Positions 19,095 to 21,348 of a stretch of 38,063 bases of DNA are shown piece after piece. Positions within the stretch are counted from its first letter, which is position 1; each line of letters opens with the position of its first letter. Both the position numbers and the translations under genes were made by a program. The notes beneath the pieces were generated by a model. The model was not told the DNA's origin and did not search any database. It saw only the letters and a list, made by a program, of their open reading frames with translations. This DNA comes from Methanobacteriaceae archaeon (lineage in GTDB: Archaea; Methanobacteriota; Methanobacteria; Methanobacteriales; Methanobacteriaceae): positions 1 through 38,063 of the forward strand of contig PWMT01000175.1 in assembly GCA_003558085.1 (NCBI GenBank), read 5' to 3'.

Positions 19095-19315
19095 TAAATA
19101 TTTTCTTTATTCCCTTCTTTTAGAGCATTAATCGAATTCATTTTTTTTCATCATTAATCCAGATTTTAACTTCTCTCCAAACAACATTGCACTTTTCATT
19201 ACTATTTTGGCCGATTAAATGGCGAATAGCTAAATCAACATTCTTTCTTTCTTACTATGGGTTTCTATTCCTGCCTCTCTAACATGAATTTCATATGTTT
19301 TAAATAGCAGTTCAT
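19095..19315 (-). pseudogene. Frameshifted small (about 65-75 aa) conserved hypothetical gene; 3' end approximate
   Basis: GGGGTG RBS then ATG at 19315; successive frames give MNCYLKHMKFMLE / AGIETHSKKER / VDLAIRHLIGQNSNEKCNVVWREVKIWINDEKK. From memory this matches small MxCYxxHM...AGI...D.AI...C..VW.EVK proteins. Confidence 0.6.
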
Positions 19316-19527
19316 ACACCCCGCCCCCATTAATTACTAATTAAGGTGTAGGGTTTAAATGAAGTACTTATCCTTAATAAAAAGAGTTATGTTAAAGCTT
19401 AGTTTAAGTCTTACAATTATCATAATTAGTTAAAGGAGTTATACTGGGCCTAATATTTTTTAGTCAAAATATATAAATGAAATCTAAGATATTATATAGT
19501 TGATTAATCGATAATGTAGGTAATTTA

Positions 19528-20976
19528 ATGAGTCGTCCTCTGGAATTGAGTATCATTCAATTAAATGATAGTCATGGTTACCTGGAACTACATCCCGAAC
19601 TATTTTGGAAAGGGAATAAAATAAATCATGCGATGGTGGGGGGTTATCCCCGTATATCAAGTATAGTTAAGGAAATAAGGAATGATAACCCTGGTAAAGT
19701 CATGTTTTTTGATGGTGGGGATACCATTCATGGAACCTATCCCGCCATCAAAAAAGAAGGTTTTTCACTGGTACCTCTTTTAAATGAACTTGATTTTAAT
19801 GCGATGACCGCCCACTGGGAATTTGCTTATGGTCCTAAAAATTTTGAAAAATTGGTTAAAAAACTTCACTATCCCATGCTGGCCATTAACTGTTATCGGA
19901 AGAAAAATAATAAGCTACTATTTCCCCCTTATACCATCCTAGAAGTTAATCATTTAAGAATTGGGATAGTGGGAATCGCAGCCACCATAGTGGACAAAGT
20001 AATGCCAGCTAAATTTAGTGAAGGTATTTATTTTACATTGGGTAATGATGAATTAAGCCATTATGTGACCCAGCTTAAAAATGAAGAAAAAGTAGACTTG
20101 ATAATAGTTCTCTCTCACCTTGGTTTTCCTCAGGATATGAAACTAGCACAAGAAATAAATAATATTGATATTATATTAAGCTCCCATACTCATAATCGCA
20201 TTTATAGGCCTTTATTAACCAATAATACTATTGTGATTCAATCAGGATGTCATGGATCCTTTTTAGGTCGTTTAGATCTAGAATTAACAGTAACAGGCAT
20301 TAAAAAATTTTCTCACAAATTAATAACTGTGTTTGAACATATTAAACCAGATCCCCCCATGGAGGAAATGGTAAACCAGGTTATGGACCCTTATCGAGAA
20401 TATTTAAATACGGTTGTAGGTCAAACAAGTACTTCTCTTAATAGAAATACCGTATTAGAATCCACTACAGATAATTTTTTGTTACAAAGTATTTTAGATG
20501 CTTTTCCAGCAGAAATGGCATTTTCTAATGGTTGGAGATATGGAGCTCCTATCCCACCAGGACCTGTAACTATGAATGATTTATGGAATATAATACCAGT
20601 TAACCCTTTAGTAGTACGGGTTAAACTAACCGGAAGAGAACTTTGGACTATGATGGAAGAAAATTTAGAGCGAACATTTTCTAGAAATCCTTATAATCAG
20701 ATGGGAGGATATGTGAAACGTTGCATGGGCATTAATACTTATTGCAAAATAGAAAATCCCTATGGATATCGGATCCAAGAAATTTTTGTCCAGGGAAAAA
20801 AATTGGAACCAGATAAAATTTATGATGCAGTATACCTTACTAGTCAGGGTGTTCCTTCAGAATATGGTAGAGAACACTCTTCAACTAATAAAAGAGCTAT
20901 TGAAGTACTAGAGAACTATTTAGAACGTTCAAAAATAATTGAAGCTCCATTGGTAGGTAGCATAGTAGCCATTTAA
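19528..20976 (+). CDS. SoxB-like calcineurin-type dimetal hydrolase (5'-nucleotidase superfamily), no signal peptide
   Basis: NDSHG, DGGDT, MTAHWEF, LSHLG, SHTH metal motifs; C-terminal SNGWRYG and FSRNPYNQMGG. Confidence 0.85.
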   Translation: MSRPLELSIIQLNDSHGYLELHPELFWKGNKINHAMVGGYPRISSIVKEIRNDNPGKVMFFDGGDTIHGTYPAIKKEGFSLVPLLNELDFNAMTAHWEFAYGPKNFEKLVKKLHYPMLAINCYRKKNNKLLFPPYTILEVNHLRIGIVGIAATIVDKVMPAKFSEGIYFTLGNDELSHYVTQLKNEEKVDLIIVLSHLGFPQDMKLAQEINNIDIILSSHTHNRIYRPLLTNNTIVIQSGCHGSFLGRLDLELTVTGIKKFSHKLITVFEHIKPDPPMEEMVNQVMDPYREYLNTVVGQTSTSLNRNTVLESTTDNFLLQSILDAFPAEMAFSNGWRYGAPIPPGPVTMNDLWNIIPVNPLVVRVKLTGRELWTMMEENLERTFSRNPYNQMGGYVKRCMGINTYCKIENPYGYRIQEIFVQGKKLEPDKIYDAVYLTSQGVPSEYGREHSSTNKRAIEVLENYLERSKIIEAPLVGSIVAI

Positions 20977-21000
20977 TAAATTAAGTTTAAGGTGTGAATA

Positions 21001-21348
21001 ATGTCAAAGTATAAGGTTATTTTTCATATAGATGAAGATGATCCCTATAGAGTGAAATTAGTTATGAATAATCTCAATAATCTGATTGAGGATATGGGAT
21101 TAGATAATCTAGAATTAACATTGGTAGCCTACGGCCAGGGGATAAATATTTTCTTAAAAATGTCTCCTTATGCAAAAAATATGGAAAAAATAGCAGATTT
21201 AGGAGTTATCTTTGCAGCTTGCGGTAATACCGCCAAGAATCTGGCAATTGAAGCCAGTGATATGTTGGATTCAGTTCAGATTGTCTCTTCTGGAGTGGGG
21301 GAACTAGTTAAGAAACAGTCCCAGGGCTGGGTTTATATTAGGCCATAA
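21001..21348 (+). CDS. DsrE/DsrF-like protein (recalled as MTH1491-like) with a single Cys
   Basis: KVIFHIDEDD, VAYGQG, FAACGNT (Cys74), VSSGVGELVKKQ.QGWVYIRP; GGTGTG RBS, 24 bp after the SoxB-like stop. Confidence 0.9.
   Translation: MSKYKVIFHIDEDDPYRVKLVMNNLNNLIEDMGLDNLELTLVAYGQGINIFLKMSPYAKNMEKIADLGVIFAACGNTAKNLAIEASDMLDSVQIVSSGVGELVKKQSQGWVYIRP

Follow-up and report, generated by a model that had tools for sequence, protein, structure and literature searches.

A SoxB-type hydrolase family of anaerobic archaea and bacteria, encoded beside a DsrE-like protein in a Methanobacteriaceae archaeon, as a candidate cytoplasmic sulfohydrolase

What would a relative of the thiosulfohydrolase SoxB do inside a methanogen? 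The question is raised by two adjacent genes in a stretch of 38,063 nucleotides from a Methanobacteriaceae archaeon (contig PWMT01000175.1, analysed over its whole length and called the window below), of which one encodes a 482-residue dimetal hydrolase (19528..20976, plus strand) and the other a 115-residue protein of the DsrE family (21001..21348, plus strand). Sulfite is a poison to methanogens, which are generally regarded as dependent on sulfide, and the handling of thiosulfate, polythionates and sulfane sulfur inside the cells of these and other strict anaerobes is poorly known. A preliminary description of the window, made from its letters alone, presented the pair as a cytoplasmic SoxB-type hydrolase with a single-cysteine DsrE partner, together a candidate thiosulfate or persulfide module in a methanogen. 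The analysis reported here shows that the hydrolase is neither an ordinary 5'-nucleotidase nor a canonical SoxB, and that it belongs to a SoxB-type sister family. As to function, the reading preferred here, with a probability of roughly 0.4, is that of a cytoplasmic sulfohydrolase cleaving S–SO3 bonds in a thiosulfate-level substrate common to its hosts, the DsrE-like protein being an accessory cysteine carrier.

The two genes are open reading frames (ORFs) with ATG starts, co-oriented and separated by a spacer of 24 bases (20977-21000). Upstream of each start codon lies a purine-rich sequence resembling a ribosome-binding site: direct reading gives the Shine–Dalgarno-like GTAGGT at 19516..19521, which ends 6 bases upstream of the hydrolase ATG, and AGGTG at 20990..20994 in the spacer, 6 bases upstream of the second ATG (both on the plus strand). 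Orientation, spacing and the presence of a ribosome-binding site had all been described correctly. Because the spacer is too short for a separate promoter, the two genes probably share one transcript and constitute one small operon. That the hydrolase gene is a real gene and not a chance ORF is supported by its 3307 homologues at E<=1e-10 (among 7999 candidates scored) and by relatives at no fewer than 582 genome loci.

The relationship of the hydrolase to SoxB was approached through profiles, structure and phylogeny. Pfam recognizes the two-domain architecture of nucleotidases (PF00149, Metallophos, 28.8 bits; PF02872, 5_nucleotid_C, 67.2 bits). Among NCBIfam models, the SoxB equivalog TIGR04486 ranks first with 349 bits (E 3.7e-104) against 111 bits for UshA, in a match that covers profile positions 112-545 only and leaves the first 111 positions unmatched. 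The best solved relative by sequence is SoxB of Thermus thermophilus (2wdc, E 3e-45), the runners-up being a cytoplasmic nucleotidase-like protein of Escherichia coli (7e-31) and then CD73/UshA. For a predicted model built from a 55-row alignment (predicted local distance difference test, pLDDT, 96.5), the fold matches ranked 1-7 are all SoxB entries, with a template-modelling score (TM) of 0.92 and a root-mean-square deviation of 2.6-2.9 Å, while closed-form 5'-nucleotidases trail at TM 0.84-0.87.

Phylogeny was based on a library of 1.84 billion representative proteins, from which 68 representatives of 430-640 residues were scanned with NCBIfam: 10 of them pass the SoxB cut-off (603-855 bits) and 17 score best on nucleotidase models, 16 of the latter serving as outgroup after P0193 was dropped. 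The tree, obtained by a quick IQ-TREE search with support values from the Shimodaira–Hasegawa-like approximate likelihood ratio test only, comprises 69 rows, namely 10 family members and 59 of the 68 representatives (P0128, P0154, P0177, P0193, P0194, P0213, P0214, P0216 and P0258 were omitted as partial or bearing long inserts). Rooted on the nucleotidase-like rows, it separates from them a 46-row clade (support 99, starred), which splits into a 16-row group of canonical SoxB and near relatives (96, starred) containing all 10 canonical rows, and a 30-row sister group (99, starred). The window hydrolase and its family sit in this sister group, outside the canonical SoxB clade. A clade uniting the family with nucleotidases is rejected by the approximately unbiased (AU) test (31 rows, LG+G4; difference in log-likelihood 195.7, p-AU 2.8e-9). 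The phylogeny against SoxB and nucleotidases that had been proposed as a check therefore places the family within the SoxB-containing clade. What stands of the relationship first claimed is that the enzyme is of SoxB type and not a nucleotidase (scores, tree and fold concur); it is not SoxB proper, since its score is below the curated cut-off of TIGR04486 (349 against 550 bits) and its place is in a sister clade.

The active site was then compared residue by residue. Seven positions aligned with dimetal ligands are present (D14, H16, D65, H96, H197, H220 and H222), as had been stated at the outset; they are invariant in a 20-sequence alignment and occur in 77-81 of 81 sequences of a wider set, the misses being gaps at truncated N-termini. 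The motifs quoted earlier (AHWEF, SNGWRYG and FSRNPYNQMGG for the hydrolase, ACGNT for its partner) are all found in the translations, those of the hydrolase as TAHWEFAYG at residues 94-102, FSNGWRYG at 332-339 and FSRNPYNQMGG at 384-394. Where nucleotidases have GNHEF, all 81 family members read H96-W97-E98-F99. Position 96 is thus His in 81/81 members and in 8/10 canonical SoxB rows, against Asn in 16/16 nucleotidases, and position 97 (codon 19816-19818), occupied by the catalytic His in 16/16 nucleotidases, is Trp in 81/81 members and in 8/10 canonical SoxB rows. Arginine is found at position 337 (codon 20536-20538) in every family member (81/81) and every canonical SoxB row (10/10), as against Gly or Ala in nucleotidases; the same counts of Arg apply to position 398, which is Gln in 13/16 nucleotidases, and both residues are also Arg in 19/19 sister-clade rows. 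Position 339 is Gly in the family versus Arg in 14/16 nucleotidase rows, and a PYxQxGG insert, present in 81/81 members and in canonical SoxB, is a gap in nucleotidases. Fifteen columns conserved in nucleotidases differ in the family, and at 8 of them the family has the SoxB majority state. At the levels of fold, metal site and sulfonate-binding arginines, these data support the statement that the enzyme works like SoxB, not the statement that it is SoxB. Conserved cysteines of the hydrolase were also considered as a catalytic or relay feature and were set aside: C122, C241 and C399 are invariant in the 20 sequences and are found in only 67, 77 and 63 of the 81.

In agreement with the preliminary description, the hydrolase is predicted to be cytoplasmic because its N-terminus is short and devoid of a signal: 13 residues precede the DxH motif, with neither a twin-arginine motif nor a hydrophobic run. 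The same holds for 11/11 family rows, in which 11-20 residues precede DxH without a twin-arginine motif or hydrophobic stretch, as opposed to 44-60 N-terminal residues with an RR motif of the twin-arginine translocation (Tat) type in ten canonical SoxB rows. N-termini in the sister clade are mixed (7/19 short, 12/19 signal-like).

How widely the family occurs was determined by a search with two family peptide patterns against one genome per species of GTDB, which gave at least 602 matching stretches and at least 582 confirmed loci. The best 80 of these loci, whose hydrolases are 54-71% identical to the window protein, were examined by means of longest-ORF calls and quick tree searches; many of them are contigs of metagenome-assembled genomes (MAGs), for which binning errors are possible, and some end at contig borders (e.g. 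L005, L numbers designating loci). Among the matches listed, the genomes encoding the nearest relatives of the hydrolase are those of Methanobacteriaceae. Archaeal hosts of the best 80 loci are Methanobacteriales, Methanomicrobiales (mainly Methanoculleus), Methanosarcina, Methanothrix, Methanoperedens, Bathyarchaeia, Hadarchaeota and one Asgard MAG; the bacterial hosts are Anaerolineae and other Chloroflexota, Clostridia, Tissierellia, Bacteroidota, Nitrospirota, Desulfobacterales, Geobacterales and Thermithiobacillus. Members with 47-54% identity are also encoded on plasmids of aerobic soil bacteria. Highly conserved and widespread in anaerobes, the family is not methanogen-specific: anaerobic archaea and bacteria encode it in no fewer than 582 species genomes, and the idea of a module particular to methanogens had to be given up. 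From methanogens to Bacteroidota, the range of 54-71% identity holds whatever the neighbour gene. The prediction that automated annotation would call the protein a 5'-nucleotidase is correct for NCBI ('bifunctional metallophosphatase/5'-nucleotidase') but not for JGI ('sulfur-oxidizing protein SoxB' or 'S-sulfosulfanyl-L-cysteine sulfohydrolase'). In L032, a contig labelled uncultured Methanoculleus, the hydrolase groups inside a Bacillota clade, which points to mis-binning or gene transfer.

As regards domain fusions, a scan of the 17 representatives that are long or extended revealed none of the hydrolase to DsrE or rhodanese, and among the 150 best representatives no match at >=44% identity exceeds 516 residues. 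One protein of the representative library, P0152 (803 residues), joins a SoxB-like domain to two cytochrome c domains, one of which is of SoxA/TsdA type; as a fusion that occurs in nature, it ties the wider clade to thiosulfate/tetrathionate chemistry.

The second protein of the pair matches the Pfam DsrE family (PF02635, 36.8 bits versus a gathering cut-off of 22.7) and, as had been noticed, contains exactly one cysteine, C74 (codon 21220-21222, plus strand, in the motif FAACGNT). This cysteine is the sole invariant column in a 22-sequence alignment of DsrE-like relatives, of which a profile search of a large protein collection retrieved 490; relatives named 'DsrE family protein' come from Methanoculleus, Methanobacteriales, Thermoplasmatota, Sporolactobacillus and Desulfobacteraceae. 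Homologues of known structure are MTH1491 (1l1s, E 3.5e-29; 7.7e-40 by profile search) and ST0148 (2pd2, E 2.5e-11; 9.6e-27 by profile search), with a marginal profile match to 3pnx, 'putative sulfurtransferase DsrE' (E 0.084). MTH1491 and ST0148 are direct homologues of equal length whose cysteine aligns with Cys74, and are structural-genomics proteins for which the depositors' names carry no function.

Linkage of the two genes is recurrent and far from general. A DsrE-like ORF is found at the locus in 23/80 cases by iterated profile or in 22/80 by tblastn (the latter including a remnant in L029) and, counted at the locus only, 57-58/80 are without one. In about 17 loci the DsrE-like gene lies directly 3' of the hydrolase gene on the same strand, and a 4-base overlap between the two frames is seen in at least 8 loci of the Methanoculleus type. 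Mapped as a trait on a FastTree of 81 hydrolases, linkage requires 11 changes, at least 8 of which are forced by starred branches. It occurs in five groups (the Methanoculleus group, the window with L001 and L002, two Anaerolineales, Methanoperedens, and a Thermodesulfovibrionales MAG), and in a sixth case, a Pontibacter plasmid, a DsrE belonging to the same subfamily (32% identity) is encoded 2.7 kb from the hydrolase gene; between the DsrE family protein of a Novosphingobium plasmid and that of the window, BLASTP produced no alignment. Most Methanobacterium loci have no DsrE-like gene, including six Methanobacterium-type loci closely related to the window (L017, L023, L026, L027, L031 and L033). 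Co-occurrence of the pair, another proposed check, is therefore upheld as a recurrence in at least five lineages, not as a rule. Prediction of a complex between the two proteins yielded no call (score 0.00 versus a mark of 0.32), a result that speaks neither for nor against binding. Some DsrE-like genes have divergent C-termini, frame splits or are remnants (L002:7447-7824, L006:7425-7868, L019:2596-2970, L004, L013, and the remnant in L029); these irregular genes in MAG loci reflect either decay of the partner or assembly errors.

Neighbourhoods provide a further source of evidence. Proteins encoded within three ORFs of the hydrolase were reduced to cluster representatives (316 proteins for the 80 loci) and scanned with Pfam. 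Recurrent neighbours besides DsrE include fusions of a metallo-beta-lactamase (MBL) fold with rhodanese, found in 8 loci (L003, L014, L018, L039, L043, L046, L051 and L053). Transporters of two kinds were also found, namely the YeeE/YedE type (Sulf_transp/DUF6691; L039, L045, L046, L051 and L075) and TauE/SafE (L025, L041, L053, L060 and L076). Tandem rhodaneses (L003, L018 and L043), a ThiF-rhodanese (L040), TusA (L060), a sulfur oxygenase reductase (SOR; L076) and SoxA/TsdA-type cytochromes (L078 and L079 only) complete the picture, together with other c-type cytochromes (L061, L072, L073 and L078) and thioredoxin-type proteins (L039, L046, L059, L047, L063 and L060). With three ORFs on either side or the fetched locus as range, 39/80 loci encode one or more of DsrE, rhodanese, MBL-rhodanese, YeeE/YedE, TauE, TusA, SoxA/TsdA cytochrome or SOR. 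SoxY and SoxZ were absent from the 316 neighbour proteins scanned, and Pfam scans of the other ORFs of the window revealed no Sox domains, in line with the earlier remark that the window holds no other sox genes.

On three plasmids of aerobic soil bacteria, the depositors' annotations place family members in sulfur islands. On that of Bradyrhizobium betae (L081), the order is ArsR, rhodanese, TauE, rhodanese, DoxX, DUF302, the family member and two c-type cytochromes; on that of Pontibacter akesuensis (L082), the family member follows a rhodanese and a putative sulfate exporter, and two further 5'-nucleotidase-like genes, DsrE, YeeE/YedE, an MBL-fold protein and TauE are also encoded. The Novosphingobium resinovorum plasmid (L083) carries ArsR, an MBL-fold protein, YeeE/YedE, a FAD oxidoreductase, TauE, TlpA, DsbA and the family member; genes for a sulfate exporter and a sulfite oxidase lie farther out. 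Anion exporters would make sense beside a cytoplasmic enzyme that is expected to release sulfate. These three plasmids are conjugative or mobilizable. Matching places number 3 in the Pontibacter record, where three 5'-nucleotidase-like genes are annotated in the stretch, and 5 in the Bradyrhizobium betae record. On a Balneolales MAG (Cyclonatronaceae bacterium, L076:52-4891), SOR, the SoxB-like gene, TauE and a second 5'-nucleotidase-like gene (505 aa) follow one another on one strand.

From homology, clade placement, conserved residues, the N-terminus and the neighbourhoods, we infer a reaction, a substrate and a role for the partner. A hydroxide held by the two metal ions would attack the terminal sulfonate, bound by Arg337 and Arg398, and the S–SO3 bond would be split with release of sulfate as in SoxB. 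The substrate could be thiosulfate, tri- or tetrathionate, or S-thiosulfonates formed with cellular thiols. A host-common substrate of this kind is favoured since conservation of the enzyme does not vary with the carrier gene beside it, or with the lack of one. In the lineage of the window, the DsrE-like protein, as a one-cysteine carrier, would accept or pass on the sulfane sulfur left after removal of sulfate, a role that rhodanese or TusA may fill in other lineages. The net effect would be conversion of thiosulfate-type sulfur into harmless sulfate and usable persulfide without the appearance of free sulfite, which is toxic to methanogens. A wider formulation, entertained here as a rather doubtful extension, would see in the family a widespread cytoplasmic sulfohydrolase of anaerobes, the counterpart of periplasmic SoxB, which turns thiosulfate or thiol adducts into sulfate and sulfide or persulfide with DsrE, rhodanese and TusA as carriers; this would amount to the chemistry of thiosulfate disproportionation without free sulfite, and periplasmic SoxB would have arisen from the family or beside it.

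Several characterized systems are informative. SoxB removes sulfate from the Cys-S-thiosulfonate of SoxY and also hydrolyses the small analogue trithionate, while a plain S-sulfonate of SoxY, too short to reach the metals, is not a substrate (PMC5336275); the hydrolysis of trithionate supports the small-substrate reading. The family resembles SoxB of T. thermophilus (2wdc/4uwq, TIGR04486) in its two-domain dimetal fold, its metal-ligand positions, H-W-E-F, Arg337 in S-x-G-[FW]-R-[WY]-G, the PYxQxGG insert, Arg398 and its position as a sister clade. It differs in that the window hydrolase has no Tat signal, in the residues N334, Y395, S244, N223-R224 and K397, in that no SoxYZ, SoxAX or SoxCD genes occur in the window or among the neighbours scanned at the 80 loci, and in hosts that are mostly strict anaerobes. 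A parallel in gene content is found in Erythrobacter flavus 21-3, where, as reported in PMC7608252, three SoxB-like genes annotated as 5'-nucleotidases accompany tsdA and an MBL-rhodanese gene. Loss of one SoxB-like gene abolishes the formation of sulfur globules from thiosulfate, and hydrolysis of tetrathionate to sulfate and zero-valent sulfur is proposed by the authors on the basis of knockouts and stoichiometry (same source). As described there, these are SoxB-like proteins annotated as 5'-nucleotidases outside a Sox system, and the family members on the Pontibacter, Bradyrhizobium and Novosphingobium plasmids and in L078/L079 lie in clusters of similar make-up. The requirement for a SoxB-like protein in thiosulfate/tetrathionate conversion supports the preferred reading. 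By contrast, E. flavus is an aerobic bacterium with periplasmic TsdA chemistry, and the available part of PMC7608252 mentions no DsrE partner.

For the carrier, the relevant comparison is DsrE3A of Metallosphaera cuprina, which together with TusA forms Cys-S-thiosulfonates with tetrathionate (PMC4175335). It is a cytoplasmic archaeal carrier of the DsrE family, and the group formed is the one cleaved by SoxB-type enzymes. As described there, DsrE3A has a Cys-X7-Cys motif, its gene is linked to dihydrolipoamide dehydrogenase/lipoamide, hdr-like and tusA genes, and no hydrolase belongs to the system; the window protein, by contrast, has a single Cys and no tusA or hdr-like neighbour and is of the MTH1491/ST0148 subfamily. 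In Methanococcus maripaludis, sulfite and thiosulfate lower the fitness of mutants without a sulfite reductase-like protein (bioRxiv 10.1101/2024.03.05.583561), a stress in a methanogen that also supports the preferred reading. Neither a cytoplasmic SoxB family nor the pairing of a SoxB-like protein with DsrE in methanogens was the subject of any paper retrieved by full-text literature searches. The 'SoxB' of PMC3512248, which was considered in this connection, is a cytochrome oxidase subunit unrelated to the thiosulfohydrolase.

A number of observations weigh against the preferred reading. Besides the sub-threshold TIGR04486 score, the family departs invariantly from canonical SoxB at N334 (P in SoxB) and Y395 (Y in 81/81, against D in 10/10 SoxB rows), and further at S244 (K in 9/10 SoxB rows) and N223-R224 (D223 in 9/10). 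With such near-invariant SoxB positions changed, chemistry or substrate may differ in ways that are not predictable. K397 and H242 are moreover invariant in the family, position 397 being mostly V in canonical SoxB; on balance two acidic residues are lost and basic ones gained, which may indicate a different and perhaps more anionic substrate environment. No sulfur-related neighbour is in range at 41/80 loci, and the outer neighbours of the pair in the window (LysE, HAD, a TMEM175-like channel and a TIM-barrel protein) are not sulfur genes. Finally, SoxB physiologically acts on a carrier-bound substrate, which favours the strict version proposed at the outset, in which the DsrE-like protein replaces SoxYZ and a Cys74-S-S-SO3- adduct, formed from tetrathionate or in an oxidative step, is hydrolysed to a Cys74 persulfide. 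This version, for which gene linkage is the support, is chemically sound and fits the tight coupling of the genes (24 bases here, the 4-base overlap elsewhere), the recurrence of linkage in at least five lineages with its 11 changes (at least 8 forced), the same-subfamily DsrE in the Pontibacter island and the invariance of Cys74. The need of canonical SoxB for a carrier-bound thiosulfonate (PMC5336275) and the formation of this very Cys-S-thiosulfonate with tetrathionate by Metallosphaera DsrE3A (PMC4175335) point in the same direction. We nevertheless consider it unlikely as a whole: the DsrE-like gene is present in only 22-23/80 loci and missing from most Methanobacterium loci, and its presence or absence makes no difference to how well the enzyme is conserved, which is unexpected if a specific partner must dock. 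Formation of a thiosulfonate from thiosulfate would require an oxidant, for which no candidate is encoded nearby, and the Cys-X7-Cys motif of DsrE3A is missing. Furthermore, the SoxY cysteine is reported (Sauve 2007) to be carried on a flexible C-terminal arm, unlike the DsrE-like cysteine, which sits within a compact alpha/beta domain.

The same cleavage could serve repair instead of metabolism. The enzyme would then desulfonate S-sulfonated or S-thiosulfonated cysteine, coenzyme M and protein thiols, damage that would arise when sulfite or thiosulfate meets disulfides or persulfides, with the DsrE-like protein as client or helper. The chemistry is identical to that of the preferred reading, and the concentration of the family in anaerobes, the thioredoxin-type neighbours at the six loci given above, the TlpA, DsbA and peroxiredoxin genes of the plasmid islands and the toxicity of sulfite to methanogens (bioRxiv 10.1101/2024.03.05.583561) are compatible with it. 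Repair is judged improbable, however, as a plain S-sulfonate of SoxY is no substrate of SoxB (PMC5336275) and as SOR, TsdA-like cytochromes and MBL-rhodanese neighbours suit metabolism better. An ordinary cytoplasmic nucleotidase or phosphoesterase, next to which a DsrE-like gene would lie without functional meaning, is what the Pfam hits (Metallophos and 5_nucleotid_C only), the NCBI names of relatives, the look-alike Protein Atlas clusters (all nucleotidase-named), the fold match of closed-form 5'-nucleotidases and the sulfur-unrelated outer neighbours in the window would suggest. This explanation is very improbable given the catalytic His replaced by Trp in every one of the 81 members, the nucleotidase Arg (14/16) and Gln (13/16) replaced by G339 and R398, the AU test, a SoxB model score three times that of UshA, and sulfur neighbours recurring in 39/80 loci. 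Probability beyond the preferred reading and these three alternatives is left to functions that were not thought of.

If the preferred reading is true, the consequences extend beyond one locus. Anaerobic sulfur assimilation and detoxification would gain a step, catalysed by a conserved cytoplasmic enzyme that takes sulfate off such compounds, and, on the wider formulation given above, methanogens would possess an unrecognised, sulfite-free route to use or detoxify sulfur derived from thiosulfate, tetrathionate or polysulfide. The conflicting automatic labels '5'-nucleotidase' and 'SoxB' on thousands of genes would be corrected; because of the latter label, sulfur oxidation genes are overcounted when anoxic habitats are surveyed by metagenomics. 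The structural-genomics proteins MTH1491 and ST0148 would gain a function. With two small soluble proteins, the hypothesis is open to direct test.

The remaining features of the window are of a more general kind. Upstream of the hydrolase gene, direct reading reveals an AT-rich stretch (19466..19499, plus strand) as candidate archaeal promoter, with two TATA-like sequences 30-60 bases before the start codon, AAAATATATAAA at 19466-19477 and TATTATATAG at 19490-19499 (both plus strand). Elsewhere the window is low G+C methanogen DNA encoding Alba, a Fae-Hps fusion, a CTP-dependent riboflavin kinase and subunits of CO dehydrogenase/acetyl-CoA synthase; no Rfam match for RNA elements was found in it. 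A class II synthetase of phenylalanyl type (531 residues, PF01409; 8259-9854, plus strand) is encoded 10 kb from the pair and unlinked to it, and its size and type fit O-phosphoseryl-tRNA synthetase (SepRS), the enzyme of the route to cysteine to which the preliminary description referred. Around the pair, between 17541 and 22822, the order is LysE-type translocator, HAD hydrolase, SoxB-like gene, DsrE-like gene, TMEM175-like channel (minus strand) and xylose-isomerase-like TIM barrel (minus strand), an order common to the two closest Methanobacteriaceae loci, L001 and L002; we know of no action of the outer genes on sulfur compounds. Lastly, at 19128-19330 on the minus strand, what is left of a small gene points away from the hydrolase gene in divergent orientation. 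Its homologue is intact in L001 (5457-5684) and L002, with 76 residues, two Cys and no Pfam family at E<0.01, whereas the remnant is split over three frames and, aligned with L001/L002, shows one gap of 4 bases and another of 1 base; it is either a pseudogene or the result of sequencing error. This small divergent gene might be a regulator of the hydrolase/DsrE-like pair.

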